A stretch of 64,000 nt of DNA from Candidatus Pacearchaeota archaeon (GTDB lineage: Archaea > Nanobdellota > Nanobdellia > Pacearchaeales > GW2011-AR1): positions 16,072 through 80,071 of the forward strand of contig VGKT01000002.1 in NCBI GenBank assembly GCA_016866955.1, written 5' to 3'. The notes beneath the pieces were generated by a model that was given only the letters and a program-made list of their open reading frames with translations, did no database searches and was not told the DNA's origin. This document shows positions 1,965 to 42,527 of this stretch, piece after piece; the first letter of the stretch is position 1, and the number at the start of each line of letters is the position of its first letter. Position numbers and translations under genes: made by a program.

Positions 1965-2225
1965 CTACCATTCTTTCTTTTCAACTAACAGATACTCATC
2001 ATCATGCTTGGGAGCATTCTGAAACATTCTTTGACGAAACACTTCATCTGCTTTTTTCCCCATTCCTTCCTTTCGGACTCCAGAAGTCTGTGTTACGTTC
2101 CCCTCTTTTACTTTCGGAAGCTTCACCTTTGCCAATTGCTTTCCAAATGAAGTGAGTATCTTCTTCGCATCTTCTTGTGCTTGTGCTTGTAAGGTAACCA
2201 TCTCCATTCTAAAGAAAGCGAGCAT
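1965..2225 (-). CDS. hypothetical small protein
   Basis: 86-aa ORF upstream of the TrmB regulator. No recognisable motif. Confidence 0.3.
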   Translation of the reverse strand: MLAFFRMEMVTLQAQAQEDAKKILTSFGKQLAKVKLPKVKEGNVTQTSGVRKEGMGKKADEVFRQRMFQNAPKHDDEYLLVEKKEW

Positions 2226-2233
2226 AAAAAGGT

Positions 2234-2956
2234 TTAGTTTTTTAGAATAGGGGTGGCTTCCTTGTACGTAGCAAGAAAAAGCTTCTTCATAAGTTTTGCA
2301 AACGGTTTATCACGAATAAGTAAAGTAGCATCAGATTTAATCAATCCAATCATAACTTCTTTATCATCAATAATGGAAAGAGCGATTCCTTCATTTTCAA
2401 TTTGACGATAATTTTTTTCAACTGTAATCCATTTATCAACATTCTGTTTTGTTTCAACATCATAACGCGTTAATGTTTTCAAATCAACATTTCGTTTAAC
2501 ATCAGCATCATGTATTCGCACCCATTCAGGTTTAAAGTCTGCTTTCCATTTAACATAATAGGAATACTTTTTTGCAACAGGAAGCAGTTTAACCAGTGTA
2601 TGAAATCCTTTATCTCCAAATTCAACAATCACAGGATCAACAGCTCTTTCAGTATATAGTTTTTGCAAACGTTTAACACTTCCACGAAGTTGATTGAGAG
2701 AAGTAGTACGTTTTTCAATAAGCTCGGAAAGTTGTTGAGGAGAAGTAGGAGCATACTGTTTAGTAGGGGCAGGTATAACACTTACCAGCGTCTTATGAAC
2801 TAAACTCTCTAAGATATCATAAATGCGACTATACGAAACACCACTCTTCGCGCTCAATACACTCGCAGGTAAAGTTCCCTGCATCAATAACGTATGATAT
2901 ACCTTAGCTTCATTTTTTGTCAATCCTAATTCTTGCAAATCTTCAATATCAGTCAT
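2234..2956 (-). CDS. TrmB-family transcriptional regulator
   Basis: N-terminal wHTH (LGLTKNEAKVYHTLLMQGTLPASVLSAKSGVSYSRIYDILESL) and a C-terminal TrmB-like domain. Confidence 0.75.
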   Translation of the reverse strand: MTDIEDLQELGLTKNEAKVYHTLLMQGTLPASVLSAKSGVSYSRIYDILESLVHKTLVSVIPAPTKQYAPTSPQQLSELIEKRTTSLNQLRGSVKRLQKLYTERAVDPVIVEFGDKGFHTLVKLLPVAKKYSYYVKWKADFKPEWVRIHDADVKRNVDLKTLTRYDVETKQNVDKWITVEKNYRQIENEGIALSIIDDKEVMIGLIKSDATLLIRDKPFAKLMKKLFLATYKEATPILKN

Positions 2957-3049
2957 ATCTTGTGCTATTTTCTGTTCTTTTTATATCTTACTAATACCAC
3001 CCCAAATAGGGTGGCATAAGTTGAAATATCTATTTTTTACCAGAAGAAA

Positions 3050-3241
3050 ATGGAAAACGTACCTTATGAAGAAAGAATAAACCATGCAGAAAGAAGAGAA
3101 CTGCAAGATGCAGCAACAGCTATCCTTAGAGAAGCAGGATTAGAGTGGGATGGAAGACCAAGAAGCCCTAATCATAGCATGCAATATAGAGAACATCTTC
3201 TTACGCAAACAGGGGCATATTGTAGTTGGAGGAGAAAATAA
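3050..3241 (+). CDS. hypothetical small protein, first gene of the nucleotidyltransferase cassette
   Basis: 63-aa ORF ending immediately before the GGAGG ribosome-binding site of the NTase gene. No family recognised. Confidence 0.3.
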   Translation: MENVPYEERINHAERRELQDAATAILREAGLEWDGRPRSPNHSMQYREHLLTQTGAYCSWRRK

Positions 3242-3242
3242 A

Positions 3243-3953
3243 ATGAGTTATTCAGGGAATCCATTTGATTTTTTAGATAAAGAAAGCTTAGCTCTAACAA
3301 GAAAAGCAAACGAAGAATGGCAAAGAGAAGAATATGAAAAAGATAGAAGATCATTAAATGAAGGATGTAAAAGAAAGTTTATAAGAAATTTAAGGACTAA
3401 CGAAAGAAAAACGATAGAAGAAATAGTAAAGTACAGTGGAAAAATATACCCGAGAGGAGAAATATATGTTTTCGGCAGTGCAGTAAGAAAATATAATCAA
3501 CATCAAGATATAGATCTTCTCTTTAAAAATGAGTTTCTGAAAGAGTTACAAAAAAATAAGATAGAAGAATATGTAAATACAAAGCTCAAATTTAAAAGAA
3601 AGCCGCAAATGCTTTTTGAAACAATCGAGATAGATGTAAGTGATATGGAACCTCTGGCGCAAAAGTTAATGCCTTGGTACAATATTGATGGAAAAAATAA
3701 ACAAAAAAGAAGAGCAAGAATAGCTTCTCAAGGAAATAAAGAAACAGATAAACCCTATGTTCATGCAGGCTTTCGAGAAATTGGTTTCAAATTATGTATT
3801 GAAGGGGCCGAAGTACCAATTCATTGTATATTTACTGGAAGCTATTATACTTTAAGAAATATAGTTAGAACATCAAAAATACAACTAGAAAAAGGAATAA
3901 TTTCTGAAGGTCCATTTGGAATAGAATTAACAAATAGGGAAAAAATAAAATGA
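3243..3953 (+). CDS. minimal polymerase-beta-type nucleotidyltransferase
   Basis: GS...DxD signature (IYVFGSAVRKYNQHQDIDLLF) with downstream acidic EIDVSD. GGAGG 8 nt upstream of the ATG at 3243. The ORF-track start at 3150 is probably too far upstream. AT-rich. Confidence 0.6.
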   Translation: MSYSGNPFDFLDKESLALTRKANEEWQREEYEKDRRSLNEGCKRKFIRNLRTNERKTIEEIVKYSGKIYPRGEIYVFGSAVRKYNQHQDIDLLFKNEFLKELQKNKIEEYVNTKLKFKRKPQMLFETIEIDVSDMEPLAQKLMPWYNIDGKNKQKRRARIASQGNKETDKPYVHAGFREIGFKLCIEGAEVPIHCIFTGSYYTLRNIVRTSKIQLEKGIISEGPFGIELTNREKIK

Positions 3954-4693
3954 AAATTGCAGTCATTGGAGATCCGCATGGAGAAATTGAAAGAGTAAGA
4001 GAAATGCAATTGAAAGATATAAAAGCAATTATCATTAATGGAGATTTGGGAAAGTGCGATATTGCACGTAAACAAAAGTTTAGCAACTTAGAGAGAACAG
4101 CAAAAGGATTACCTGAAAGAATATATTCTGCTGAAGAAAGAGAAAGAGCATTTTTAGAGTCATATGAAACGGCCCTATCTTTAAGCAGATACTTGGCATC
4201 AATTGCTCAAACGTACACTATTTATGGAAATGTCGAAAATGTACATTCAAAAGAAAAAACAGAAGAACTTTCAAGCGAAATAGGGAAAAGGCTACCCTTA
4301 CTTGAAGAAGGATTATACAAAGAGGGATGCAAGGTCTTCAACAATGAAATACTTGAAGTAGCAGGCAAAAAGATAGGAGGATTAGAATATTTTACAGATA
4401 CTCTAGAAAACGAAAAAAGAGCACAAAAAATACTTGAACGTATGGAGAGAGTAGATCTATTAATCACGCATCAGCCCCCATATGGTTCATTAGATAAGCT
4501 GAGTAATCCAAATTTACCTGCCGAATTAAAAGGAAAAAGAGTAGGAAGTAGAGCAATACGAACATATATCGAAACTATGCAACCTGCCCAAGTCTTCTGT
4601 GGACACGTACACGAGGGTGAAGGAAAAGAAAAAATAGGAAAAACAGAGGTATATAATTTAGGATTCTGTGGATACAAAATTGTTGAAATATAA
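3950..4693 (+). CDS. calcineurin-like metallophosphoesterase
   Basis: Phosphoesterase motifs GDPHG, INGDLG, GNVEN, THQPP and GHVHEG. Start overlaps the NTase stop (ATGA), suggesting an operon. Confidence 0.8.
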   Translation: MKIAVIGDPHGEIERVREMQLKDIKAIIINGDLGKCDIARKQKFSNLERTAKGLPERIYSAEERERAFLESYETALSLSRYLASIAQTYTIYGNVENVHSKEKTEELSSEIGKRLPLLEEGLYKEGCKVFNNEILEVAGKKIGGLEYFTDTLENEKRAQKILERMERVDLLITHQPPYGSLDKLSNPNLPAELKGKRVGSRAIRTYIETMQPAQVFCGHVHEGEGKEKIGKTEVYNLGFCGYKIVEI

Positions 4694-4694
4694 A

Positions 4695-5522
4695 TCAGTA
4701 AAATTTCGTAGTGATTTTCTTTCCCTCTAGTTCCACAATCGCATACTGCCCTTCATGTATTGAACCAGGATTGATGCAGAGCGTTCTTCCGAGCAAAGTT
4801 TTCCCTCTTCCTTCATGAATATGTCCCCCGATATGCATCAACGGACGATAACGTTGAATAACCCGACGTATCAACTTTGAACCATAATGCTTTCCTCGTA
4901 CCGCAGGATGTGCTTTCATACTGATTTTGTCAAGAGCAGTGTTGAAAGGCACGTTATGACTCACAAAAATAAGGTGCTTGCCAGTAAAGCGAGCAAACAA
5001 ACGTTGCAACTTCATCCACGAAGCACGAAATGTCTTGCTGAGAGGTTTGCCTGGGTTTGTCCCTCCATAAGCCCCAATAAATACATACTTTCCAAACACA
5101 AAAGAACGATAATCAATTCGATGCACATTCTTTAATGAACGCATCCACAGTCCCACTATATCCCTCCATTCCCAGGCCCAATAGCGCTTCCCTTTTGGCT
5201 TTGCTATATCTTGGCTATCAGACGTAATATGATCAACATTTCCAAACACCGTCACAACAGGAACAGGCAACGCATCAAGCGCTTGTAATGCTCGTTCACC
5301 TTGAGCAACATCTCGCGTCACTAATTGCTTATATTTCTGCTTTCCAAGTACTTCCCATAATTCCCTGTCCTGCCCATAACAATAGTTAAACCACAATGTT
5401 CGATAAGCAAACGAACAATAATCCCCATTAGATACCACAAGAGCAATCTTTTGTTCATTGATAATACGTTTTAATTTCGCGGGAAACGTTCCATGAAAAT
5501 CCCCCAGGACAAGCAGTTTCAT
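4695..5522 (-). CDS. calcineurin-like metallophosphoesterase
   Basis: Motifs GDFHG, SNGDY, GNVDH and GHIHEG. Convergent with the preceding phosphoesterase. Confidence 0.8.
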   Translation of the reverse strand: MKLLVLGDFHGTFPAKLKRIINEQKIALVVSNGDYCSFAYRTLWFNYCYGQDRELWEVLGKQKYKQLVTRDVAQGERALQALDALPVPVVTVFGNVDHITSDSQDIAKPKGKRYWAWEWRDIVGLWMRSLKNVHRIDYRSFVFGKYVFIGAYGGTNPGKPLSKTFRASWMKLQRLFARFTGKHLIFVSHNVPFNTALDKISMKAHPAVRGKHYGSKLIRRVIQRYRPLMHIGGHIHEGRGKTLLGRTLCINPGSIHEGQYAIVELEGKKITTKFY

Positions 5523-5546
5523 AAAGAAAAAAAGAAGTATCTCCTT

Positions 5547-5789
5547 TTAACCCTTCTCTTCTCGATAATGCCAATACAAAGCCATCACTTCTTGATACTC
5601 TTGTTCTAATAATGCCAAAGCAGGGGTTCCCCCTGCTCGCACAATTTCTTGACTATAATATCGTCCCAAAGCCCGTTGCAAACGTAAAAAAGAAGAATCA
5701 GTCGGACAACGAACGCGTTCTCCTTCATCCTGAAGGGTGATTGCTAATATAAATGCTGCACGATCACGTGGTTCAGGAAAAAGACGCAA
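5547..5789 (-). CDS. hypothetical protein, possibly the C-terminal fragment of a disrupted gene
   Basis: 80-aa ORF with a TTG start and an in-frame stop just upstream. It lies 85 nt (a frame-breaking distance) downstream of the 174-aa ORF. Confidence 0.25.
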   Translation of the reverse strand: MRLFPEPRDRAAFILAITLQDEGERVRCPTDSSFLRLQRALGRYYSQEIVRAGGTPALALLEQEYQEVMALYWHYREEKG

Positions 5790-5874
5790 TACCTCTGCAA
5801 ATCCCTGACCACGTATGCTTCAATAAGATTCAGCTGACATTGTAATGAAAAACATAAAAAAGAACTTTATAAAA

Positions 5875-6399
5875 CTATATGGAAAAATCTTCAGGTAAAT
5901 CTTTGAATGCAGATTCCAATCGCACTCGTTTAAAATGATGACGATAACAAATTCCTCCAATAAATTCAGCAAGTCCTAAAAAATCATCAACAAGTCGCGC
6001 TTCATAAGGTCTAATGTCTTCACGCAAGGCAACTTTCTCAGGAAATTGAAGCAAATACGCTAAACGATACTGTTGAGGTACTGCAGTTTTCACAAAATCA
6101 GCGGCAAGTTCAGATTCAGTTGGTTCATGTCCTAATCGTTGTCCTAAAAAGAATTTTTCACGTTGTACCCAGGTAATTTGAAATTGATTATAATGTGTAA
6201 ATGCAAGCATAGTAACTCCTGAACCAATACGTTTTTGATGAAAATTGGCCACATTCATAATCAGTCCTATTTGCCAAAGTTCATGAGGAGAAGTAATAAT
6301 ACGTCGATGAGCCTCTGTCAATGCTTCACCAGACCGATACGCTTCAAAAGATAAATCAGGATTAACTAAATGTAAATGAGCAGGACGAGGAACTTCCAT
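5875..6399 (-). CDS. hypothetical protein
   Basis: 174-aa ORF. No family recognised. May have been contiguous with 5547-5789. Confidence 0.45.
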   Translation of the reverse strand: MEVPRPAHLHLVNPDLSFEAYRSGEALTEAHRRIITSPHELWQIGLIMNVANFHQKRIGSGVTMLAFTHYNQFQITWVQREKFFLGQRLGHEPTESELAADFVKTAVPQQYRLAYLLQFPEKVALREDIRPYEARLVDDFLGLAEFIGGICYRHHFKRVRLESAFKDLPEDFSI

Positions 6400-6430
6400 A
6401 AAATAAAAATTAAATCTTACCTTAAAAGAA

Positions 6431-7741
6431 TTACGGTGTTAATCGATCTCGATCTCGAGGAAACATCGTTGCTTCTCGAATATTATCCAATCCGCATACT
6501 AATTGCGTCATACGTTCAAGTCCGATACTCCATCCTGCATGTGGTGGTGCTCCATATTTGAAACTTTCAATATAATCAGTAAAATCTTTTGGATTCAGTT
6601 TCTTTACTTTCAAACGTGTCAGCAATAAAGTGGGCAAATGAATACGCTGTCCTCCAGAGGTAATTTCAAGTCCTTTGTAAATACAATCAAATCCTTCACT
6701 TAATTCAGCCTTAGCATCTTCTCCCTTGGGCATTAAATAAAAAGCACGAAGAGATAATGGCCACGAATGTACAAATACCATATCATCAGGATAGAGTTCT
6801 CCCAATTTCTTTTCAGCTTCAGGAGATAAATCTTCTCCATAAGCAATTTTTATCTTATGTTTCTTCAAAAGAGCAATTGTTTCTTCATAGGAAAAGTAAT
6901 GCGCCTGAGGAACCTTGAGTGTTACTCCAAGTAAAGCAAGATCGGCCGCATTCTGTTTCAACACTTCCTCAATCATATGTTTCAAAACTTCTTCTTCATG
7001 TTTCATAATACTCATTTGATTTTCAAATGCAGCTTCAATATCCATTTGACGAATTTCATTGATATGCCGTACCGTATTATGTTTCTCAGCACGCCAAACT
7101 GGAGTCACCATAAACACTTTTTCAACACTACAAGCAAGCATTTGTTTATACAACTGAGGACTTTGTGCTAAACAACCTTGTTTCTCAAAATACTGTACTT
7201 TAAACAAATCGGCTCCCCCTTCAGAAGCGGCAGAGATAACGCAAGGAGGTTGCATCTCCAGGAATCCTTTTCCTGCAAAATGTGCACGGAATGCTTGTAA
7301 TAAGGTATGTTGAATCTTAAAGATCGCTTGAGTTTTTCTTCGATGAAAATCAAGAAATCGAGTATCAAGACGTTTAGGTAATTCAGTTTTAGAAAAATCA
7401 CTGACATCAATAGGCAAAGGATTCTCCGCTCCATGTACCACAACAAGAGAGGTGGGGGCAAGTTCTCTTCCACCAGGAGCTTTCGGAGCTTTTTTTACAA
7501 TCCCTTTCAACAAAACAACACTCTCTCGATTAACTTTGCCCATCGTATCAAATACACTCGCATCAGTTTCTCCTTTAAACCCAGTCACTTGAATTTCTCC
7601 GGAAATATCACGTACAACAGCAAACCGTAATTTACCTAATTCTCTACTATCATACCACCATCCTGCAAGCGTTACTTCTTTCCCTTCATCTTTAGAACTA
7701 ACATCTGCAATCAATACGCGCTTCTCAAATGAAACTGCCAT
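6431..7741 (-). CDS. aspS: aspartyl-tRNA synthetase (archaeal type)
   Basis: N-terminal OB-fold anticodon-binding domain, class II core and terminal motif 3 GLERMTQLVCGLDNIREATMFPRDRDRLTP. Confidence 0.9.
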   Translation of the reverse strand: MAVSFEKRVLIADVSSKDEGKEVTLAGWWYDSRELGKLRFAVVRDISGEIQVTGFKGETDASVFDTMGKVNRESVVLLKGIVKKAPKAPGGRELAPTSLVVVHGAENPLPIDVSDFSKTELPKRLDTRFLDFHRRKTQAIFKIQHTLLQAFRAHFAGKGFLEMQPPCVISAASEGGADLFKVQYFEKQGCLAQSPQLYKQMLACSVEKVFMVTPVWRAEKHNTVRHINEIRQMDIEAAFENQMSIMKHEEEVLKHMIEEVLKQNAADLALLGVTLKVPQAHYFSYEETIALLKKHKIKIAYGEDLSPEAEKKLGELYPDDMVFVHSWPLSLRAFYLMPKGEDAKAELSEGFDCIYKGLEITSGGQRIHLPTLLLTRLKVKKLNPKDFTDYIESFKYGAPPHAGWSIGLERMTQLVCGLDNIREATMFPRDRDRLTP

Positions 7742-7775
7742 AACTCTTCTTAGAACAACCCCGTTTTAAGCATTC

Positions 7776-8066
7776 CTATTCGCATAAAACAATGTTCTCT
7801 GCACGAGGATCATTCCAAATTTCAGAGAATTGGGTAAGATTCGAAACAGGTACCAAAGAAACAACTTTTCCTTGTTCACAATGCACCAGCACATCAATAC
7901 ACTGGTGCTGGTCATTACAAATAGCAGTTGTCCAGGTATATGTTTTTTCAGACTCAATAGTACCAACTACTTGACCCGTCACACTTCCCTGACCTAAAAA
8001 ATACCCTCCACCAAAGGCCCCCACTATAAGTAAAAGTGCTCCCCAGATAAATAATTTCATCATCAT
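7776..8066 (-). CDS. small secreted/membrane-anchored hypothetical protein
   Basis: N-terminal TM/signal (MMMKLFIWGALLLIVGAF) and 4 Cys. Overlaps the gatE stop by 4 nt. Confidence 0.4.
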   Translation of the reverse strand: MMMKLFIWGALLLIVGAFGGGYFLGQGSVTGQVVGTIESEKTYTWTTAICNDQHQCIDVLVHCEQGKVVSLVPVSNLTQFSEIWNDPRAENIVLCE

Positions 8067-9493
8067 CCAACCACCTTCTGCAAAATATCCATTGTTTTTT
8101 TCTTATCAATACCAGTACCAAGTTTTCCAATCACCAATCCCATATAGGCATTCGCTCGTAATCCCGGTTTTTCAGCAACAAGAGCACGGATAGTTTGTTC
8201 AAGTGCATTCTCATCAAGTCCAGGAGCAGGTAAAGAAGATGAAACACTCTTTCCCTCAACAACACTCTTCAATACTCCTTTAACGTGCCCTTCTGCAAGG
8301 CGTCCTGAAGCAACATATTCCAAAATCTCATCATAAATCGCTTCAGTCAACACTGAAGCACGTTCATCAGCAGTCATATGTGCTTTTGTTCCCACTTCTT
8401 GTGTCCACAACGTAATTAATTTAGCAGTTAATACAGGAGATACCGCATGTCGTTTTACAAGTGTAGTATACAATGGCACATACCCATCCAACACCAGAGT
8501 AACAAGATCCGAAGAGAGCCCTTGTTTCAAAAGATCTTGTCGAATATCGTGTTGTAAACGAGGAAGGGATTTCTTAAGTCCATCAAGTCGTTCTTTAGAA
8601 ATATACAACAAAGGGAGATCAGTTTCAGGATACATGCGTGCTTTCCCGGGCATTGGACGAAGAAACTTTGTTGTCCCATCAGGTAACGCCTGACGAACTT
8701 GACTAGCCCCTTGTTTCTCACTTTGCTGTCGAGCAATTTCAGTCAGAATCGTCTGTTCCATCATCGCCACATCTTGAAATCCTTTTACTTCGACACGAGG
8801 ATGTCCCGGACTACTGATGTTCACATCCTGACGAATCGTTCCAATTCCTCGTTTCACCTTACATGCACGAAGAATCTCCCCCAATTTCAATGCAGTTTCC
8901 TTTACCTGTACAGGAGTTGTCAAAGTAGGAGCAGTAGCAATTTCAACCAAAGGAATTCCTAAACGATCAAGACGATACACTACTTCTTTTCCTGATTTTT
9001 CTGAAACTAAGCGCGCAGAATCCTCTTCCAAACATACTGTGTCAATAGGTACCTTTCCAAACGAAGTTTCAATATAACCATTACGCGCCAATACAACCGT
9101 ACGCTGAAAACCAGAAGTATTCGAACCATCAATCACCAACTTTCGCATAATCTGTGTATGCTGATACACTTCACAATTGAGCAATAACGCCACACGTAAC
9201 GCCTCATCCAAAGCAGCAGGAGAAATAAGATGCGGAGGTTCTTCATCTAATTCAACTAAACAAGTCGAATCATGATATCCCTCGTACACAAACGTCTTCT
9301 CTTTCCCCGCTTCATGCTGCACAGCAACATCAACCTCCCCCGTCTCTCCAGCAATAGCATGCAACTTTCGTGTCACCCGCACGTCACCAGCATCTTGCCG
9401 TAAATAGCCCGGACACGCACAAAACAGTTTCCCTGTGTCTAATTGCTGATGTATCTCAAGTCCTGCCTTAAAACCGAGTGTTGGGGAGCGCAT
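8063..9493 (-). CDS. gatE: Glu-tRNA(Gln) amidotransferase subunit E (GatE-like, short form)
   Basis: GatB/GatE-family N-terminus (GLEIHQQLDTGKLFCACPGY...) with the GatE-characteristic YEGYHDSTCLVELDEEPP segment. At 476 aa it is shorter than typical GatE. Confidence 0.75.
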   Translation of the reverse strand: MRSPTLGFKAGLEIHQQLDTGKLFCACPGYLRQDAGDVRVTRKLHAIAGETGEVDVAVQHEAGKEKTFVYEGYHDSTCLVELDEEPPHLISPAALDEALRVALLLNCEVYQHTQIMRKLVIDGSNTSGFQRTVVLARNGYIETSFGKVPIDTVCLEEDSARLVSEKSGKEVVYRLDRLGIPLVEIATAPTLTTPVQVKETALKLGEILRACKVKRGIGTIRQDVNISSPGHPRVEVKGFQDVAMMEQTILTEIARQQSEKQGASQVRQALPDGTTKFLRPMPGKARMYPETDLPLLYISKERLDGLKKSLPRLQHDIRQDLLKQGLSSDLVTLVLDGYVPLYTTLVKRHAVSPVLTAKLITLWTQEVGTKAHMTADERASVLTEAIYDEILEYVASGRLAEGHVKGVLKSVVEGKSVSSSLPAPGLDENALEQTIRALVAEKPGLRANAYMGLVIGKLGTGIDKKKTMDILQKVVG

Positions 9494-9553: not shown

Positions 9554-10531
9554 TTAGCCTTTAGGAGTAACAGTATACTTGAATCCGTAACGTTTAGTAT
9601 AGCGATTTAATTGCGCTTTGATCTCTTCACTCCCGATGTTACCTCGTAAAGAGTAGCGAGCAAAGCGACTATTTGCAGAATCTAAATGAACATGTGTTTC
9701 ATGATCTTTGTATCCATTTGTCATACTTTGAAATCCACTCAAAATACCTTTCATAGTATATGAAAGACCTTTCCCTCGTAAACCAGAAAGCTCAATTTCA
9801 AAAACACGATTAGAACGAAGCATTGTCTCAAGATGCTCTGCAGAGTTCAGGACTTGAGAAGCAATAAATTCATGAAAAAGATTTTCAGTAAATGACGGTT
9901 TCTCTAGTTGACTCTCCCGTGATGCTCGATCTTTAAGAGTTTTATTAAGTAATCCAAGATACAGTTCTCGATGACCTTGAGTAATAATTGCAGGAGTATA
10001 TCCTCGTTGTTCTAAAGCGAAATTTTGTACAAGACGAGCAGTTCTTCCATTTCCATCTCCATACGGGTGAATACGAATCAGTTCAATATGTGCTTGAGAA
10101 GCTCGAATAACAGGATGAATGTCCGTACGTTCATTTAAAAAATAACAAAGATTATCAATAGCAGAGAGAATACGTTCAGGAGGAATACCTGATAAATCTC
10201 CAAAAGTAACTTCCCCGCTTCTAAAATAACGAGCAATATTAGGACGAGGCTCAACGATACTTCCTAAAACAGCAAAAGTAGTTTTATCAAACCCATGTTC
10301 TGCAAGATATGCACGTGCTGAACTTAAATTTTTAATGTACTCTGAGCGTTTTTGCGCAACTTGCTTATTAGTAGGGCTATCCTCATTTTCAATTTCTAAA
10401 TTAGAAGAATGTTTATCAGAATCACGAATGAGGCCTGTAAATACTTCTCGAGCAAGACTACGAGAATATTCAGGATGCGTATTAATTCTCCCTATAGCTT
10501 CATCGATTTTTTTCAGAGTTTTATAAATCAT
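9554..10531 (-). CDS. Fic/DOC family protein (putative AMPylase)
   Basis: Canonical Fic motif HPYGDGNGRTARL. Has its own TATA-like element (GGTTTAAATAGGG) upstream. Confidence 0.85.
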   Translation of the reverse strand: MIYKTLKKIDEAIGRINTHPEYSRSLAREVFTGLIRDSDKHSSNLEIENEDSPTNKQVAQKRSEYIKNLSSARAYLAEHGFDKTTFAVLGSIVEPRPNIARYFRSGEVTFGDLSGIPPERILSAIDNLCYFLNERTDIHPVIRASQAHIELIRIHPYGDGNGRTARLVQNFALEQRGYTPAIITQGHRELYLGLLNKTLKDRASRESQLEKPSFTENLFHEFIASQVLNSAEHLETMLRSNRVFEIELSGLRGKGLSYTMKGILSGFQSMTNGYKDHETHVHLDSANSRFARYSLRGNIGSEEIKAQLNRYTKRYGFKYTVTPKG

Positions 10532-13891: not shown

Positions 13892-14046
13892 CGGCCCCAG
13901 GAAGAATCGAACTCCCGTTCTCAGGTTGCTTCGTATCGCACCACCGGGGTGATACGTCCTCCAAAAGGAGGATGATGCGTCAAGGAACCGTGGTTCCTTA
14001 CGCTACGCTCCGAAGCCTGATGTTCTATCCACTAAACTATGGGGCC
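13892..14046 (-). tRNA. tRNA-Arg (anticodon TCG) with a roughly 82-nt intron in the anticodon loop
   Basis: Hand-folded. Acceptor GGCCCCA/TGGGGCC, D-arm GTTT-AGTGGATA-GAAC, anticodon stem TCAGG/CCTGA, loop CTTCGG^intron^A, T-arm GGGAG-TTCGATT-CTTCC. Intron placed at the canonical 37/38 position. Confidence 0.55.
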
Positions 14047-18560: not shown

Positions 18561-19259
18561 ATGTATGAACAACTAAAAGAATCTGGACTTACAGAAAATG
18601 AAATAAAAGTCTATTTAGCATTAATAAATAACGGTTCTAATTTAGCAGGAAAAATATCACGATTAACAGGTCTACATAGAAGAACGATATACGACACGAC
18701 AGAAATGCTTATACAAAAAGGACTAATAGGTTATATCTTAAAGAATAATAGAAGAATATTCTCAGCTACAAATCCTAATAAACTTTTAGAAAACTTAGAA
18801 GAAAAACAAGCAATGTTACTTCCACTGGTTCAACAGCTAAAAAGCAAATTAGATGAAAAAAAGGAAAAAGAAGAAACATTATTCTATAAAGGCAAACAAG
18901 CTTTAAAAAATATATTTGAAGATCAATTGAATGCAAAGGAAATTTTAATTTTAGGTGCAAACAGCGAAGCATACAAAATTTTGCAATTTTATTTTAAATG
19001 GTATGATCAAAAAAGAAAAGCAAGAAAGATACAAACAAGGATTATAACACATGATAGGAATATAAAACGCATTCCACTTGCAGAAATAAGATATATACAC
19101 GAGAAATACAATAATCCCTTAGCAATTAATATTTACAAAGACAAAGTAGCTATTATCCTCTGGGCAAAAGAACCAATAGCTATTTTAATAAAGAACAAGG
19201 AAATCTCAGATTCCTATAAGTTATACTTTGAATTAATGTGGAAAACAGCAAGTAAATAA
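18561..19259 (+). CDS. TrmB-like transcriptional regulator (second copy, AT-rich)
   Basis: N-terminal LTENEIKVYLALINNGSNLAGKISRLTGLHRRTIYDTTEMLIQKGLI wHTH typical of TrmB. Confidence 0.6.
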   Translation: MYEQLKESGLTENEIKVYLALINNGSNLAGKISRLTGLHRRTIYDTTEMLIQKGLIGYILKNNRRIFSATNPNKLLENLEEKQAMLLPLVQQLKSKLDEKKEKEETLFYKGKQALKNIFEDQLNAKEILILGANSEAYKILQFYFKWYDQKRKARKIQTRIITHDRNIKRIPLAEIRYIHEKYNNPLAINIYKDKVAIILWAKEPIAILIKNKEISDSYKLYFELMWKTASK

Positions 19260-23171: not shown

Positions 23172-26100
23172 TCAGCTTTGTAAAAATCGAGGAAGATAAA
23201 CACACTTGAACCAATTCAAGATACGTGAAATATCGGTCAAACGATCATCAAAACATCCTCGCGTTACAAACAGAGATCCTCGAGATTTATCACGACTTGT
23301 TTTAGAGTTCTTTCCAAGAATAACTCCTGCTTCTTCCAATTCTTCATCAGTACCTGGCACATCATCACGTACAGCAGAAGCAGTTCCTGAAGTTCTTCCA
23401 ATCAATGCTTGCACAGCAGCTTGATTCTTTTGTTTCTTCAAACTATCAAGGCTATCTGATTGAGAAGCATCAAGTCGTACATTTTCAGGATTAGATGGAA
23501 TAATTTTTTTACCAACAACACAAACAAGTTTTTTACTATCAAATTCCCCCTTACGCTTAGTACACATTTCCTCAGCAAGACTCTTACAATCAGCAGGACA
23601 CAACGCACGAGTTTCTCCTGCTTTAGTATCACAGATCTTATCTCCACATGCACTAGGAAGCGTAGTATTAGTAACAATTCCAATAGTACATCCCAAAGGA
23701 TTAGTACAAGTAATCGGAGGTACAAGGATATCTCCCGAACAAGGACAACTACCTGCACAAGCAACAGAAGTAGTCGCTTGACCTGCAAAACAAGGATTCA
23801 TATAAGAAAGTCCGTTTGCCCCACACACAGGAGACGCAGGTTGGCTTGCACAAGAAGGAACACAAGGGCCATAATAAGCAACAGCTACTTGCGCTTGTGC
23901 AGCTTTACAGGGGCTAGAATACGAAATACCATCCTCTCCACATACTAATGGACCAGCAGATATTGAACCAAATAGTGTAGGGCAAGTGGTTGAAATCGTA
24001 GAACACACTCCTTGATATGCAATCGTTATTCCTACTTGAGTAGCTAAACAAGCTTTATCATACGTTACTTCATTTGTACCACACACAGGAGCAGAAGGTT
24101 CGCTTGCGCACGCATATTCAGATCCCCCAGTACATTCATAGAATTCAAGAGACTGCATAACAACCAAAGTATTCTGAGGATTACCTGGCGTTTGTACTTC
24201 CAACTTCGTAAACGTAATACGATAATAGCGTGCAGAAACAGGGGAAGCAAGCATCCGTTTATTCACAGTGCGTGCATCACTCAAAGAAGCACTATCTCGT
24301 ATCGCCCAAGTAACACCGTCATCAGAAGACTCCAGAACAAACTGAGCAACTAATGGATTCCCTCCAAGAAGTTTAAATTGATACGCACCAATAGTACGAG
24401 GAGCAATAAATGAATACTGAATCCATTTTGGTGCACTAGCTGAAACAACCTGCGATTGCCAGAAGTTTGTCCCACCTGAGAAAGCACCCCAGGCCTGTCC
24501 TTGCGGACCACCAACCGTTGGATAATTCAATGCTTCACTATTACTTGATACGGTACCAACTGAAGAAGTATAACTTGACATCGTAGGAACAATAGTACCA
24601 CTCAACGATGTACACCCTGCCTGATTTGTATTCCCCGCACCATCGCTCACACACGTACAGCTACCTTCAAAGCAAGTATGAGTAAATCCAGGCAAACAAA
24701 GTATACCCACTGGAGGAGTCGTACATGCACCAGTAGAAACAATACTCACTCCAAGTGTTTCTGCTTCACATGAATTACCATACGTTACTCCATCATCCCC
24801 ACATACTGGTTTATACACTGCAGAACAAGTAACTGGTTCAGGAATTTTAACACAATGCAACTTTCCACAACCACTCAAACAGCCATTCGCGTCATAAGAA
24901 TTATCTTCAAGTGTACACTTTCCCCCAATTGGAATAAACACTTGAGGACAGGTAACTACATCGGCACAAAGGACAACATCATCTGATACTATATTTCCAC
25001 AAGTAATTGGACATCCCTTTTCATTGAGAACAGGGGCACCATAATGATATCCTTTAGGAGCACGAGGACAAGTCAAAGGCCCACATGCATCTCTGCCATT
25101 ACCTTCACAAGATAACGTACCGCAATCAATTTGACAACCAAAGTGATCAATACCTGGATTGGAATAAGAACAATCCGCAGGGGCAATACAAATCGGAGCA
25201 ACAGGACATACAAACGACTCTTCTCTGAATGCTGCACATTCTCCATCAGAACACGAAGTACAAGGTACAAAATCTCCTCCACGTTCAGGTGAAACACCAG
25301 GAGCAACACAATATAACTTGCTCACATAACACTTCTCTCCTTCACATGAATCAACCTTTTGCCCAAATTCACCAAAGGGATGTTCACTAATATAACATTC
25401 TTCATATAAGTTTTCAGAAACAAAAGATCCTTTACTATCGGTAAAACGTAACGCATGACGAGAATCTCTTCCAAAAGGATAATAGGCAAATTGTTTTGCA
25501 CGTTCACGTCCCTGACAAATACCAATAAAATTACGACTATATTTGCACTCCCAATAGAAAGCAACTCCCCCTCCTAAAGTATCAGCCCAACAAGCATTTC
25601 TATAATCTTTGCCATCTGCACCACACACAGGAGTATAATCGCTCGTACAATGATTTCCACCATCTCCTCCACCTTCTCCTCCACCTTTTCCTCCACCTTC
25701 TCCTCCACCTTTTCCTCCACCAACAATAGTAATGATAGGAGTACACAAAACAGAATCAATAGGTGCATGCGTTAAAGAATCAACACACACTCTTCCAACC
25801 CAAATAGGATCTCCACGAACAGTTTTTTCTCCACATAAATCAACATACCAATTATCAGGTTCGCTCGTCACATCATTACATCCGGCAGGACCGGGAAGAA
25901 TATACGAAAATGATGCTTGAGAGGTTCCCAAAGGATATACGCCTGAATAAAGTACCATCTCTCCGCTCATACCGTAAGCTCCAAAGAAGCTAGGCAACGG
26001 TCCAACTTTGCCATCTGTTCCTCCACCCGTCCCCTTATGAACAAGTCCTCCACGAGAATCAACCAAGTACCATGCTCCATCACCCACGTCTAATTGAAAA

Positions 26101-29100
26101 TAAACCGCAGCTAGATCTTTCTTAGTATCACAAGAGAGTCCAGTCTTTTGAATGCCCCATACTGCAGCAGGAGGTTGCACCTTACAGTCTTGTGGACAAC
26201 TACCCACCGATACCGTTTGAGTACATACCTCTGGCACTTTAGGGACATTGGGAGTAGTCGTAGGAGTAGTTGGTGGAGCAATCACCGTACAACGTTCAGC
26301 ATAAAGTGCCTTATATTCAACACTTTTTAAGAAGCCCTCTACAACTTGTGCACGAGTAGAAATTCCCTGTGTAAGTAAACCAGTCCAGTATGCTTTTCCT
26401 TGAGGATCTGAAGATCGTAAGAACAAACGTTCATACAATGTTTCAACAAACGCATCAGTACTCAACGTAACCAACCCATTAGCAAACGTTGTTGCATCAG
26501 GAGTACTACAACTAAAGGTACCTGAAGTAGAAGTTGCCTTGATAACTGGTAAGGCAAGACAGAAATGCACGTAGTGTGTTCCTCCCGAAAAGTAAGAAGG
26601 AGAATAGGGCACAACGCTACCCGAAGGATACATCGTACCCACCAAAGGAGCAACACTTGCTGCAGTTGTTTGACTCAATTTCCATTGTCCTCCAACATTT
26701 TCATACGTAAAGACAAGATTTCCACCCAAATGAGTCACAAATGAAGTCGTACTCATACCATCTCCACTCGAAGGTTGATAAACCGGACCACCATTCGAAC
26801 ACACACTCGAACCAATCGGAACAAAATCAACTACAATTTTACTTCCAGAACCAGTTCCACTCACTGGAATAGTAATAACCTGTGAAGAGCCATCTGCAAA
26901 ATAAAGTGTCAAAGTTCCTCCACTCCAAGGTTGCACTTTTGCAGCAAATACATCTAATTGATAAGTTCCAGCAGGATAGATTCCCAAAGACTGACCATAT
27001 TCATAATTCAATTGCTGACCATTTCCAATAAATACAAGAGGGTATGCATTGGTAGAAGAAGTCGACCAATATTCTCCTTGAAATGCATGTTGTAGATAGG
27101 CTGAAGTAATAGTCTTTGCAACAGGAAGAGACAATTGCACTATGAAATGATGATCAACTCCCCCGTACGCTGAAAAGGTTCCCCACGGACCAACGCGATC
27201 TTGATCAGCACCAAGATAAGTAGCAGTAATTTTTTGCTCTTGTTGTGTAGAAACAGGAACAACACCGCCAGGAAGACGAACACAGAACGTTGTTTGCTCA
27301 CCTGATTGAGCAGTATACCTTCCTCGTACAATTTGTCCTGAAGCATATTTAATCGAATTAAATGAGCCATGAGGAGGCAATGAAATAGACTGACCATCTA
27401 ACGTTAATGAACCATACGCTGGTCCTCCTTGCGAACCGATCTGCCAAACAGAAGGAGCAGTAAGAGAGAAACCAAGAGGAATCGTACCAATAGAAGATTT
27501 ACTCACAAATCCTGAAACAGGAACTTGCCAAGATGAACGAGAATATCCTTGGAAAGTACCTGCTTGATATCCTGCACTTGTTTCATCATACAAAACAGGG
27601 CAACCTGCAATACCCGTACCTTGTGTCGTAGGCGTTTGAGTAAGTGGAGTAACAAAAGAGGTAGAACTTCCTGGCAATTGCAAACACGTTAGTCCCGCAA
27701 TTCCATTGATACGTACCTGTGTTCCTGGAGGATACGAGCCGCGCCCATCAGGGAAGGATACAACTCCTCCTGGATAACCACCGACGAAATAGGTCCCATC
27801 TCCTTGAATATTGAAAAAGGAATAATAAGCTCCTGTTTGATAGACTACCGTCGTAGCATCATAACCTGCAGGGCGAGGATTCAAAGGTTGCGCACAACTT
27901 GTGGTTGTGGTTGTTGGAGTTGTAGTTGCAGGAGTAGCAGAAGAAGATGAAGAAGAACTTCCAATATACGTACCAGAACGACATTGAGCAGAAACAGTAA
28001 CAGGAGAACAGATATAAGCCGTTGCACTACCAGTAGAAGTTCGACAGGCACATCCTTGATAACCATCAGTTTTTTGCCAAGTAACTAATCGATTACTATC
28101 AGTTGATTCAAAAAATACCCCAATACCTGATAAGGTACATTGTCGTTCATTATTCGCAATCGCATACGTACCTCCACGCTGTGCACACATTGCTTGATTC
28201 TGAATATCAGTCATATCAAAAACATACCAAGGATAATAACAAGTATTTCCTCGCTTTTCACCCTGAAGACCTAGATACGAACAAGCAGAAGAAGCAGCCA
28301 AAGCTTCAAATCGAGGTTCATCGAAATAAGAATGACCAATTGTTTGGAGAGAGGTAGAAGAAACAGTGCACGCATTTCCTGTTGCTTCTCCTGTTTCACA
28401 AATGTTATTTCCACAAACTGCTTTATCTAATTGAGTAATACACGTATCTTTCTGAGGAATTACAAATGGACCAACAGAAGCTCGCTGAACACCATCACCA
28501 AATAATTTCAAAGTAACTTCTTCTCCAAATTTATAGATGAAATACGAATCAATTGTTTCCTGAGCTTTCATATTTCCTGTTGTTCCTTGTTGAATTAATT
28601 GATCCCATCCTCCACGAGAGTTGTAAAGCATGTATGAAGAAGCAAGAACCTTATTAACGCCAAAACTAAAGTCTTGACGTACCCCACTCCCATCAGGTAA
28701 ACATTCTTGTTTTCCTAATTGAATTGTCCATTCATCAATTTTCGGAGAAAGTAATGGAACAAATCCTGGGGCACTAGTTAATTGAGTAACAATTGGAGAA
28801 GAGAAACTGAGAGGAATAAGATCCGATGAAGGAGTAACGGTTTCACAAGGTTTCGCAACAATCTTCCCATTCGGACATTGATACGTTTCTCCACCGGTTG
28901 TACACGTATCAAAATTAATATCCAAGTTACAGGTTGGATCCCATCCAAAAGCTCCACACGTATCAGGGTCAGGACCAGTTGTTTCTCCATCAGTTCCTGA
29001 ACAAGGTCCAGACGTACAGGAAGGACTATCACACGGAACTTGTTGAGCAGGAGCTAAACAAGCATACGGCCCAGTACAAAGAGGAATACTATAACAGGTT

Positions 29101-30767
29101 TCAGCAGGGAGAGTAATAATAGCCTGGCTCCCAATAACTTCAGAAGAAATAATCGTAACCGCTACCCCTCCCACGTCTATCGATGGACCTGGTTGCCCGG
29201 AGGGACGATTAGGATCCCCAACAACCTCATCATGAGGAAAAAGTTTTTCAATAGGCTCAATCTTAACTCCCTCAGGAACAGGACCACAAGAAGGATCCCA
29301 TCTTTCAGTAGATTTAATTTTTGGAAGAGGATAATTCTCTGCTCCAGACCACACCCGGCTAGGAGCAGGTGTTTCACAGGCACCATATCGACTGGCAGTC
29401 AATTGTAGATTTGGGTTTTGGCAAGCAGCAACACGAAGAGTACACGAGTTTGAATAGGTTTTACCATCAGAGCCACAAACTGGAGTATAGTCCGCAAGGC
29501 ACCAGGTAGGGCATACAGTTGGGTTAGGAGTAGGAGTAGGAGTAGGAGCAGATTCAGTACTACATTCTTTTGTCACACGCACCCCTTCAGCAGAACAGAA
29601 CGAATCCCCTTCTTGTGCAAGTAATTCTTCACAACTTGGACGAGGACATAACATCTTACAATCTCCTGCTGCCACATCACCTGCAATCGTACATCCTTGC
29701 GCTTCCGCTTGATCAGAAAGTTCTGGACAGGTTCTCTTCGCAATCGTTTCATACACACTTTCAGGAGCAGGTTCCCAATTACTTGTATCCTTAACATAAT
29801 ACACGGGGAGAATTTTAAAATCACCGTCAACAGTACCATCTCCATTCAAATCACCTTCTATTCGTTGCCCATCAGGTACGCTTTCCCCTCCTTTTTCGCT
29901 CTCAACATCCGTACCAGTACAACCCTGACAAGTAACAAGCACTGGTTCACCTGGACCAGTTTTTTTAACCAAACCAATAACAGATAAACCTTCAGGAAGA
30001 GTATGCCCTTCTCCTTCTTCTTGAGGATACTTATATACATCTGCAAAATAATACTTATCATAACCATCTCCACCATCATCTCCACCATCACCATCTCCAC
30101 CATCATCTCCCCCTTCACTTCCGCCATCTCCCCCATCTCCTCCATCTCCCCCATCTCCTCCATCTCCTCCATCTCCCCCATCTCCTCCATCTCCCCCATC
30201 TCCTCCATCTCCCCCATCTCCTCCATCTCCTCCATCTCCTCCATCTCCACCATCATCTCCACCATCTCCTCCATCTCCACCATCATCATCATCATCACCA
30301 TCTCCCCCACTTCCGCCATCACCATCATCACTCAAATATTCAAACGTTACATGTCCCGTCGGAGAAAGTAAATCTGCAAAAGGAGCAAAAAAAGCAGCAA
30401 GGGGAGTTCGAGCAGGTTCAGCAGAAGGAACATCACTAAATCCAAACGCACGCAACACAAATAACGTACCCTGTCGAGTTGCTGCCACATCAGTTGTATA
30501 CAAAGGAACGGTAAAACAATCCCCAAGATTATCAGAGATACATTTCAAAGTACCTGAGCGAGGAACACTATCGGCAATATACAAAAGCGTTTCAGGTTTA
30601 ATCAATCCGTAAGTATATCCTGCAACCCAATATTGAATATCTTGTTCTCCAGCAAACGCACCATCTCGATTTCTATCAAAATTAAATGTTTTTAACGAAG
30701 CACCCGAAACAAAACTAACCAATAAACAAAGTCCAATTAAAAAGAAAACAAAACGCATTAAGCGCAT
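23172..30767 (-). CDS. giant secreted multidomain surface protein (2531 aa)
   Basis: Signal peptide, (GD)n/(GGDG)n low-complexity tract, PTPT linker, six Kazal-like modules (C..YxPVCG(S/A/D)DGxTYxNxC), F5/8 type C discoidin-like domain, DUF4214-like module, dockerin-like [11 protein letters not shown] motif, and GGGK/GGGE repeats. Confidence 0.85.
30060..30300. repeat. short-period coding repeat (ccatctcc[t/c])n encoding the Gly/Asp tract of the giant protein
   Basis: Seen directly in the sequence. Confidence 0.85.
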
Positions 30768-34060: not shown

Positions 34061-34062
34061 AC

Positions 34063-34082
34063 GAGAGAGAGAGAGAGAGAGA
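34063..34082. repeat. (GA)10 dinucleotide microsatellite between the TATA box and start codon of the 714-aa gene
   Basis: gagagagagagagagagaga sits between the ATG (34058-34060, minus strand) and CTATATAAA (34085-34093). Confidence 0.95.
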
Positions 34083-34084
34083 CG

Positions 34085-34093
34085 CTATATAAA
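34085..34093 (-). promoter_or_regulatory. TATA box of the 714-aa secreted-protein gene
   Basis: CTATATAAA lies 24 nt from the leaderless ATG. The spacer is entirely (GA)10. Confidence 0.55.
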
Positions 34094-42494: not shown

Positions 42495-42527
42495 AAGAAA
42501 GATAATAAAAAAAATAGCTTTTAATAC

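Follow-up and report, generated by a model that had tools for sequence, protein, structure and literature searches.

The window analysed here is a stretch of 64,000 nucleotides (nt) from Candidatus Pacearchaeota archaeon (contig VGKT01000002.1), an archaeal sequence with a mean GC content of 38.2 %. Within it, positions 2234-5522 hold a gene for a TrmB-family regulator, a divergent set of three co-directional genes encoding a 63-residue protein (orf63), a nucleotidyltransferase (NTase) and a metallophosphoesterase (MPE1), and a second metallophosphoesterase gene (MPE2) that converges on them from the opposite strand. The segment is flanked on one side by a GatC-like gene and on the other by orf80, orf174, AspRS, orf96, GatE, a Fic-domain gene and GatD. 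The sequence of MPE1 is that of FJZ22_01475 (100 % identity), a hypothetical protein of Candidatus Pacearchaeota archaeon, and the nearest relatives of the adjacent AspRS lie in metagenome-assembled genomes of Pacearchaeota, Nanoarchaeota and Woesearchaeota. Our comparisons set the window against the strain contigs L001-L003 and against other relatives, likewise designated by L numbers, with 126 loci fetched in all. An earlier note on this DNA had described the open reading frames (ORFs) from orf63 to MPE2 as an AT-rich cassette of foreign appearance; all four are present in the ORF list, as follows.

2234..2956, minus strand: TrmB-family regulator, 240 aa, divergent from the orf63-NTase-MPE1 unit
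2957..3049: shared control region, 93 bp, with two TATA-like elements and a central dyad
3050..3241, plus strand: orf63, 63 aa, no family match, probably the leaderless first gene of the operon
3228..3232, plus strand: GGAGG Shine-Dalgarno site of the NTase, from the sequence
3231..3246, plus strand: direct repeat, left copy GGAGAAAATAAAATGA, 16 nt, taking in the NTase start codon
3243..3953, plus strand: NTase, 236 aa, orphan, probably pol-beta-type with a minimal-nucleotidyltransferase (MNT)-like core, from its motif and sub-threshold clan matches
3474-3479, 3507-3515 and 3624-3638, plus strand: NTase motif sites GS, DID and candidate third carboxylate (IEIDV)
3938..3953, plus strand: direct repeat, right copy GGAAAAAATAAAATGA, with the MPE1 start and the NTase stop (ATGA) inside
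3950..4693, plus strand: MPE1, 247 aa, predicted MPPED2/aq_1956-like metallophosphodiesterase (PF14582, COG2129 'Icc-related')
4695..5522, minus strand: MPE2, 275 aa, MPE1 paralogue by sequence, corresponding in position to the MPE downstream of AspRS in relatives

The divergent operon-like unit and its control region

As the earlier note had proposed, orf63, NTase and MPE1 seem to be transcribed together. orf63 is preceded by a TATA-like element and is separated by a spacer of 1 nt from the NTase, whose GGAGG Shine-Dalgarno (SD) site is located within the last orf63 codons, 10 nt 5' of the NTase ATG at 3243; the NTase stop codon overlaps the MPE1 start codon in an ATGA at 3950-3953. Most genes of the window carry a TATA-like element about 25 nt 5' of their ATG without an SD motif, which suggests that their mRNAs are leaderless, and an SD-like motif precedes only 9 of 54 window genes. 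The -25 element of orf63 (AATAT...) fits a leaderless first gene, and the NTase is headed by the full GGAGG.

The databases carry a 267-aa version of the NTase that begins at an upstream ATG at 3150. Between 3150 and 3242, three substitutions separate the window from L001; read in the orf63 frame, two of them are synonymous and one is not, whereas in the 267-aa frame each of the three changes the amino acid. Over the whole of orf63 there are two synonymous and three non-synonymous differences from L001, and its codon-position GC (0.52/0.47/0.22) is the coding pattern of the genome. The SD/-25 pattern, the substitution pattern and this codon-position GC lead us to favour the 236-aa start at 3243 over the 267-aa database call, and to favour a genuine orf63. 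The suggestion that orf63 might be a HEPN or antitoxin partner found no support in family searches, which returned no match in Pfam, NCBIfam or PADLOC and one negligible match in PHROGs (E 0.08). Among the 126 fetched loci its homologues occur in the strain contigs L001-L003 only, the large protein databases not having been searched with orf63 alone, and phmmer --max with orf63 and the NTase against the 14,309 ORFs of these loci gave nothing past the strain contigs.

The regulator possesses the N-terminal winged-helix domain of its family (PF01978, 65.2 bits against a Pfam cut-off of 25.6), and NCBI names the product of 2234..2956 a TrmB family regulator. TrmB regulators classically control sugar metabolism. 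The TATA-like elements of the shared control region lie at about 2979-2988 for trmB and about 3024-3032 for orf63, and between them, at 2997-3014, is the dyad CCACCC-CAAATA-GGGTGG (inverted repeat I24), which is hence also situated between the trmB ATG (2956) and the orf63 ATG (3050). By itself, a dyad with 6-bp arms would not be significant in a region of 93 bp. The divergent TrmB/MPE1 arrangement is, however, retained in L080 (TrmB 85 % identical at the amino-acid level), where the dyad arms are unchanged, and in L077, where both arms are altered together (CAACCTC-TAAA-GAGGTTG) within conserved flanks. This conservation and co-variation across three lineages makes the dyad a good candidate, and probably the site, for the TrmB operator. 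Rfam searches of 2900-3300 gave only a chance-level U6 match (E 0.16) and no riboswitch or leader RNA family; scans for sigma-70 promoters and intrinsic terminators stayed at background level, as expected in an archaeon. A second TrmB-family regulator is encoded at 18561-19259 on the plus strand (PF01978, 49.5 bits), with a GC content of 27.6 % (z -2.2) and a strand opposite to that of its neighbours.

The metallophosphoesterases and the orphan nucleotidyltransferase

Both phosphoesterases have a complete set of the five metal-binding motifs (DxH, GD, GNH/x[DE], H and GHxH). The canonical motifs that the earlier note had read in MPE1 are indeed all present (GDPHG, NGDLG, GNVEN, THQPP and GHVHEG), and MPE2 carries their counterparts GDFHG, NGDYC, GNVDH, SHNVP and GHIHEG. 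Both proteins belong to Pfam Metallophos PF00149 (45.8 bits for MPE1 and 45.1 bits for MPE2; cut-off 21.5) and to PF14582 (30.7 and 55.1 bits; cut-off 28.2). MPE2 had been presented as convergent and unrelated: it does lie on the opposite strand, but it is 26 % identical to MPE1 over the full length (E 5e-15), and the two have their subfamily models, PF14582 and PADLOC PDLC04908, in common. By these alignments the two are paralogues.

Searches with MPE1 yield 345 homologues at E <= 1e-5. Almost without exception these are proteins of 260-270 aa, mostly 264 aa, from Pacearchaeota and Nanoarchaeota, which JGI labels 'Icc-related predicted phosphoesterase'. In an alignment of 49 family members D8, H10, D32, N94, H174 and H221 are invariant and H219 is nearly so, and the AlphaFold2 model of MPE1 built with this 49-sequence alignment reaches a pLDDT of 94. 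A Foldseek comparison of the model with the PDB ranks rat MPPED2 first (3rl4/3rl3, TM 0.64), followed by aq_1956 (2yvt) and TT1561 (1uf3); the best superposition has an E of 1e-10, and Dbr1, Mre11 and Rv0805 come next. The modelled fold relatives of MPE1 are nucleotide and nucleic-acid phosphodiesterases, not protein phosphatases. In the fly, the MPPED orthologue is reported to act on cAMP, cGMP and further diesters (PMC10547211). With the MPPED2/aq_1956/TT1561 class MPE1 shares membership of PF14582 and PF00149, the best superposition and all metal ligands, including both GHxH histidines. It differs in that its identity to any solved member is only 13-18 % and in that the family is here duplicated and embedded in an archaeal AspRS/Gat cluster. 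PHROGs returned generic MPE matches only.

The NTase is recognised by its GS...DIDLL motif, with G78-S79 and D89-I-D91 lying in VFGS-AVRKYNQHQ-DIDLL (residues 76-93), in agreement with the pol-beta signature hG[GS]-x9-13-Dh[DE]h and with the earlier reading. D131 in IEIDV (128-132) is a candidate third carboxylate, plausible by sequence only. The assignment to the pol-beta superfamily holds as far as this intact motif is concerned, but every profile score is below its curated threshold. The 91-aa core reaches 20.7 bits with NTP_transf_2, narrowly short of the cut-off of 21.0, 21.6 bits with MTPAP-like (cut-off 27) and 19.8 bits with Polbeta (cut-off 26.9), at E values of 2.5e-4 to 9e-4, and 15.0 bits with DNA_pol_B_palm; the matches to four NTase-clan Pfam models (E 2.5e-4 to 3e-2) fall on one stretch of 60-80 residues. 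In the PDB, the best match by sequence is 2rff, a 111-aa 'putative nucleotidyltransferase', at E 0.022 and aligned across GS...DID (residues 56-103), and NCBI names the 267-aa version 'nucleotidyltransferase domain-containing protein'. We conclude that the NTase probably has a pol-beta/MNT-like core.

MNT genes are abundant and mobile in archaeal genomes. Like the MNT proteins (NTP_transf_2 PF01909/Polbeta PF18765, of which 2rff is an example), the window NTase has the helix-strand-GS-helix-strand-DxD core. It differs from them in its length of 236 aa, with a charged helical N-terminal extension of about 55 aa and a C-terminal region of about 100 aa that matches nothing, as well as in its sub-threshold scores and in the confinement of its relatives to one species-level lineage. 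Neither does it have the HEPN-domain partner with an Rx4-6H motif that a HEPN-MNT (type VII) toxin-antitoxin system would place beside it; its neighbours are orf63, which matches no family, and, downstream, a metallophosphoesterase. A word-indexed search of 5.8 billion clusters returned only the NTase's own 97 % strain cluster, and an exhaustive phmmer search of 1.84 billion representatives only 97 % strain variants; the 15 billion proteins covered contain no other homologue. The NTase matches no housekeeping family, a match that the earlier note would have taken as a refutation.

For all its isolation, the NTase is under purifying selection, to judge from its substitutions. Relative to L001 it shows nine synonymous and seven non-synonymous differences, or a pN/pS of 0.185, compared with 0.21 for MPE1, 0.19 for orf174 and 0.14 for AspRS, and none of the four strain contigs interrupts its 236-codon frame. 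It is also the only part of the supposed AT-rich block that is in fact AT-rich, with a GC content of 29.5 % (z -1.8; GC3 z -1.5 among 58 genes). MPE1 (34.8 %, z -0.7) and TrmB (34.4 %, z -0.8) are within one standard deviation, orf63 has 40 %, and MPE2 is above the mean at 42.3 % (z +0.9); TrmB, formerly cited as a neighbour of normal GC, is as AT-rich as MPE1. An AT-rich island elsewhere in the window, at 39577-44434, has a GC content of 24-26 % (z about -2.5 to -2.9) and comprises four co-directional genes, two without a Pfam match and two for family-2 glycosyltransferases, of which one has a GtrA/DPMS membrane domain. This island resembles foreign or variable surface-glycan genes much more closely than the NTase locus does.

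The MPE1 initiation region in the window and its relatives

The NTase ORF is flanked by a 16-nt direct repeat (D5), GGAGAAAATAAAATGA at 3231-3246 and GGAAAAAATAAAATGA at 3938-3953, each copy of which holds a start codon and ends in ATGA. The 64 kb contain no further copy of this 16-mer, even when one mismatch is allowed. Among 1711 gene pairs the initiation regions of NTase and MPE1 are the most similar, agreeing at 12 of 13 non-ATG positions; the mean over all pairs is 3.7 (standard deviation 1.7) and the next-best pair reaches 10. In L080 (TrmB 85 %, MPE1 73 % identical), TrmB faces MPE1 over 104 nt and both orf63 and the NTase are absent. In its leader, ATGGAAAATAAAATGAAA, the orf63 start codon runs straight into the stretch found just before MPE1 in the window, and a near-identical motif in single copy, GGAAAATAAAATGA, heads its MPE1. 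In L077, from Nanoarchaeota (MPE1 58 %), the regulator diverges from an operon of an AdoMet_dc-like gene, an NTase of another family (NTase280) and MPE1; here the near-identical motif, GGAGTAAATAAAATGA, stands before the AdoMet_dc-like gene, the first SD-led gene of the operon, and NTase280 overlaps MPE1 by 4 nt. The simplest reading of these arrangements is that genes have been gained or lost exactly at the MPE1 initiation region and that this region was duplicated. Metagenome contigs scanned with MPE1 for intermediates with the TrmB-slot-MPE1 layout gave a best match of 41 % identity and no informative loci.

Two candidate equivalences with L077 were rejected. The window NTase is not a diverged orthologue of NTase280, as BLASTP finds E 0.44 at the DID motif only and hhalign a probability of 0.3 % (22-member family), and orf63 bears no similarity to the AdoMet_dc-like gene in the equivalent position. 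Beyond MPE1, L077 continues with a 103-aa ORF and then, in the opposite orientation, a 228-aa ORF with an NTase-like motif, MPE2, a 110-aa ORF and a homologue of orf174. In L084, an MPE is followed by an AdoMet_dc-like gene, NTase279 and an NTP_transf_2 gene. The NTase280 family comprises 23 proteins, usually encoded after an AdoMet_dc-like gene, in contexts that include a position between SecY and ribosomal-protein genes, one after an IS66 transposase with APH and HAD genes, one after an MPE near AspRS, and one by an aminoacyl-tRNA synthetase (aaRS) with a PIN/VapB pair and restriction-modification genes. The AdoMet_dc-like gene (about 120 aa, PF02675) and the 275-280-aa NTase, as overlapping ORFs, form a recurrent two-gene module in unrelated contexts of DPANN archaea (copies at L077 4798-6004, L081 4643-5831 and L084 4645-5840); in the L077 copy the usual self-cleavage serine is seemingly replaced (TSG), as seen by eye only.

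Closer to the window, the strain contigs L001-L003 (97-98 % nucleotide identity) carry TrmB, orf63, NTase and MPE1. MPE2 is deleted from L001 and L002 save for its first nine codons, and L003 ends inside MPE1. In the L001 and L002 strains orf80 (5547-5789, minus strand) is replaced by a 33 %-identical allele (L001 2635-2886, amino-acid identity) amid flanks of 97 % nucleotide identity, so that this gene is hypervariable; the window allele is nearer to the one in L004, the next species (44 %), which points to a replacement of the orf80 allele by recombination along with the MPE2 deletion. L004 (Baikal-deep-G141, AspRS 89 %) is the nearest species; it is collinear on both sides and lacks the whole TrmB-MPE2 block of about 3.3 kb. 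Between orf96 and AspRS, L004 has an extra class-II aaRS paralogue (5043-6320, 36 % identical to AspRS) that is absent from the window.

Wider relatives have one MPE between AspRS and the GatC-like gene, often in the order GatE-AspRS-MPE-GatC-like-x-GatA, and no adjoining NTase. The MPE in this slot is of the MPE2 type in L005, L011, L024 and L084 and of the MPE1 type in L008, L028, L032, L117, L118 and L121. Because they are conserved by AspRS/GatC in many relatives that have no NTase there, the MPEs are, on this comparison, lineage-core though dispensable genes and not a foreign cassette. The order across Pacearchaeota (L117, L118, L121, L028 and L084) is GatE/GatB_N, AspRS, MPE (264 aa), a 77-aa GatC-like gene, a 95-123-aa ORF and GatA (Amidase), with its counterpart in the window at 1965-9493; a phosphodiesterase inside a tRNA-dependent amidation cluster may merit study by itself. 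The Fic/DOC-domain gene of the window (9554-10531, minus strand) lies between GatE and GatD and is kept in strain contig L001; Fic/DOC proteins are another type of nucleotidyl-transferring enzyme.

A possible nucleotidyltransferase-phosphodiesterase pair and its alternatives

Based on the above data, we propose that a TrmB-controlled accessory operon has received an orphan MNT-like NTase at the start of MPE1, on a background of resident phosphodiesterases. Positions 2234-5522 are a dispensable, strain-variable segment within the conserved GatD/GatE-AspRS...GatC neighbourhood, in which an orf63-NTase-MPE1 operon is driven from the shared 93-bp control region. MPE2 would be the resident AspRS-linked phosphodiesterase, and both MPEs would be binuclear-metal enzymes of the MPPED2/aq_1956 type. 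The orphan NTase would have been inserted precisely at the translation-initiation site of MPE1, and since the initiation region is now duplicated as a 16-nt repeat, the two genes would be translationally coupled. We place the probability of this reading as a whole at about 0.45; within it, the comparisons above show the gene structure, the paralogy, the distribution across the lineage, the indel history, the purifying selection and the negative outcome of the defence-family searches.

Several observations weigh against it. The NTase fold is putative, as the clan matches all fall under the curated HMM thresholds and the single-sequence AlphaFold2 model is unusable (pLDDT 32). The indel may be a loss of orf63 and the NTase from L080, with the GGAAAA-containing copies recombining, or a gain of both in the lineage of the window; the sequences fit either. 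MPE1 evidently does without the NTase in L080, and so do members of its family in at least 11 other contexts (L005, L008, L011, L024, L028, L032, L078, L117, L118, L121 and L123). The AspRS/Gat neighbourhood of relatives also holds PIN-domain/VapB-antitoxin pairs, restriction-modification genes and transposases, together with small gene pairs that are toxin-antitoxin-like by eye only; with mobile or selfish genes at this place, the adjacency of NTase and MPE could reflect an insertion hot spot instead of a shared function. Lastly, four-base overlaps are frequent between unrelated genes of this compact genome.

Further steps can be added to the proposed operon, tentatively and at somewhat less than even odds: that TrmB binds the dyad and controls the operon, and that NTase and MPE1 act on one substrate. 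The NTase would transfer a nucleoside monophosphate to a hydroxyl, most plausibly of an RNA or tRNA 3' end or of a protein. The phosphodiesterase would either make that end ready, through the opening of a 2',3'-cyclic phosphate or the cleavage of a 3'-phosphate, or take off the nucleotidyl adduct, which would result in a writer/eraser or an end-healing/tailing pair. The ATGA overlap hints at such a coupling, as does the unrelated NTase that occupies the same slot in L077 and likewise overlaps MPE1; the translational coupling that has been preserved, the further genes of NTase or NTase-like type adjoining MPEs in L077 and L084, and the family's constant association with tRNA-dependent enzymes speak in its favour. 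Bacterial class II CCA-adding enzymes, fusions of a pol-beta NTase with an HD-domain phosphoesterase, offer a functional analogy only, combining nucleotidyl transfer to an RNA 3' end with a phosphoesterase that clears 2',3'-cyclic or 3'-phosphate ends; here the genes are separate, the phosphoesterase has the calcineurin-like and not the HD fold, no sequence relationship was found, and the activities are predicted.

A broader generalisation, which we advance as speculation with rather poor odds, would be that DPANN archaea repeatedly pair non-homologous pol-beta NTases with one MPPED2-like phosphodiesterase family, under TrmB and at the MPE start slot. The examples would be NTase236->MPE1 in the window, NTase280->MPE1 and MPE2->NTase-like228 in L077, and MPE->...->NTase279 in L084. 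A repeated NTase-MPE module by AspRS/Gat could, with the same doubts attached, be an unrecognised system of RNA/tRNA 3'-end repair or of reversible nucleotidylation (writer/eraser). Our literature search on NTase plus metallophosphoesterase in DPANN found no papers.

Among the alternatives, the one that survives best, though we consider it unlikely, is that orf63 and the NTase form an independent, selfish toxin-antitoxin-like pair in a permissive expressed slot, unlinked to the phosphodiesterase. The two-gene layout with its 1-nt spacer would suit such a pair, as would its gain or loss as a unit relative to L080 and its orphan, AT-rich character. Other pairs are found near the AspRS/MPE genes of DPANN, among them an NTP_transf_2 gene with a 139-aa gene behind it in L084 and PIN-domain/VapB-antitoxin pairs in L082 and L125. 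The NTase280 family, which is unrelated, likewise changes context together with its AdoMet_dc-like partner. The arrangement resembles the AbiEii/MenT (DUF1814) systems in having a small ORF upstream of a 200-300-aa NTase with GS...DxD, at a locus among tRNA-dependent enzymes; MenT toxins target tRNA acceptor ends. It differs from them in that PF08843 (AbiEii/MenT, DUF1814) is not matched at E <= 0.1 in Pfam or PADLOC and no upstream AbiEi/MenA-type antitoxin is matched either. More broadly, Pfam, NCBIfam, PADLOC and PHROGs yield no AbiEii/DUF1814, HEPN or antitoxin-family match (for the NTase itself, Pfam gives neither AbiEii nor HEPN and PHROGs nothing), orf63 is too short for a HEPN domain, and its composition is native-like while that of the NTase is not. 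The two genes have no promoter of their own; they use the TrmB-side promoter and stand between it and MPE1, keeping translational coupling, which is atypical of autoregulated toxin-antitoxin loci.

We find it improbable that the NTase modifies a small molecule in the manner of aminoglycoside or lincosamide nucleotidyltransferases (KNTase/ANT type) or activates a metabolite while MPE1 hydrolyses a related phosphodiester under TrmB-type metabolic control. The classical role of TrmB in sugar metabolism would fit this, the NTase280 family, a positional counterpart, weakly matches streptomycin adenylyltransferase PF04439 (E 0.003), and in L082 NTase280 precedes an APH-fold kinase and a HAD phosphatase. 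However, the window NTase is unrelated to NTase280, its best matches are RNA-type (MTPAP-like) and MNT models, and no helical substrate-binding domain is recognisable in it.

The interpretation favoured by the earlier note, in which the NTase makes a nucleotide signal as a CD-NTase/OAS-like enzyme and the MPEs act as effectors or degrade that signal in a signalling or defence module, fares worse, and we regard it as very improbable. It draws on the proximity of the NTase to phosphodiesterases whose nearest solved relative, MPPED2, is a cyclic-nucleotide phosphodiesterase (PMC10547211, for the fly orthologue); on the strain-variability of the locus; and on the PADLOC candidate PDC-S10, which both MPEs match (E 1.2e-19 for MPE1 and 2.2e-10 for MPE2). 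The PDC-S10 match of MPE1 is partial, covering positions 84-201 of 223 in the generic C-terminal half of the MPE domain, and the locus context is AspRS/Gat, not defence. The NTase in turn matched, among the 5027 PADLOC models at E <= 0.1, no CBASS or cyclase model and only the candidate PDC-S09, a small NTase (E 0.008-0.017). PDC-S10 and PDC-S09 are untested single-gene guilt-by-embedding candidates, not a pair, and the matches are to generic domain cores in an aminoacyl-tRNA context. What is shared with CBASS is a pol-beta-superfamily NTase followed by a hydrolase in one operon at a strain-variable locus. Here, though, Pfam reveals no effector-type or sensor gene in 2234-6399, and thus no effector with a nucleotide sensor; the 236-aa MNT-like protein is smaller than CD-NTases and has no CD-NTase C-terminal domain; and the hydrolase appears to be a lineage-core gene older at the locus than the NTase. 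The MPE family also sits in a housekeeping tRNA-aminoacylation cluster in many genomes without an NTase, and the close relative L080 keeps TrmB-MPE1 without orf63 or NTase. The genes, motifs, overlap, operon structure and enzyme classes that the earlier note had recognised therefore stand, while a foreign signalling or defence cassette finds no support in MPEs of ordinary GC and lineage-core distribution and in an NTase that matches no named defence model.

That the NTase is a decaying or spurious AT-rich ORF, mere filler between orf63 and MPE1, is hardly credible: its orphan status, low GC, sub-threshold family matches and unconfident structure prediction would allow it, but its pN/pS of 0.185 is the same as that of neighbouring housekeeping genes, its frame is open in four strain contigs, GS...DxD is intact and it has its own SD site.

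Elsewhere in the window, a 155-nt Rfam tRNA match (13892-14046, minus strand, 49 bits) without an ARAGORN call is probably an intron-containing archaeal tRNA. A giant ORF of 2531 aa occupies 23172-30767 on the minus strand, and a (CT)n run at about 34061-34085 lies directly upstream of a 714-aa gene (31916-34060).

To return to the accessory operon that we favour, its genes are new members of known superfamilies, and the orphan NTase and the start-codon slot are mildly interesting. The present value of the locus is mainly cautionary, in that an apparent NTase plus phosphoesterase defence cassette resolves into a lineage-core gene pair and an orphan insertion. The locus also shows cleanly, on a small scale and in a reduced genome, how a gene can be inserted like a cassette at a start codon, with the 16-nt duplication of the initiation region as its mark. 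Should the NTase and the phosphodiesterase cooperate, the DPANN archaea, which are poorly understood, would have a new pair for nucleotidylation/de-nucleotidylation or RNA-end healing, and the function of a phosphodiesterase family conserved by AspRS/GatCA in hundreds of these genomes would become accessible for the first time.

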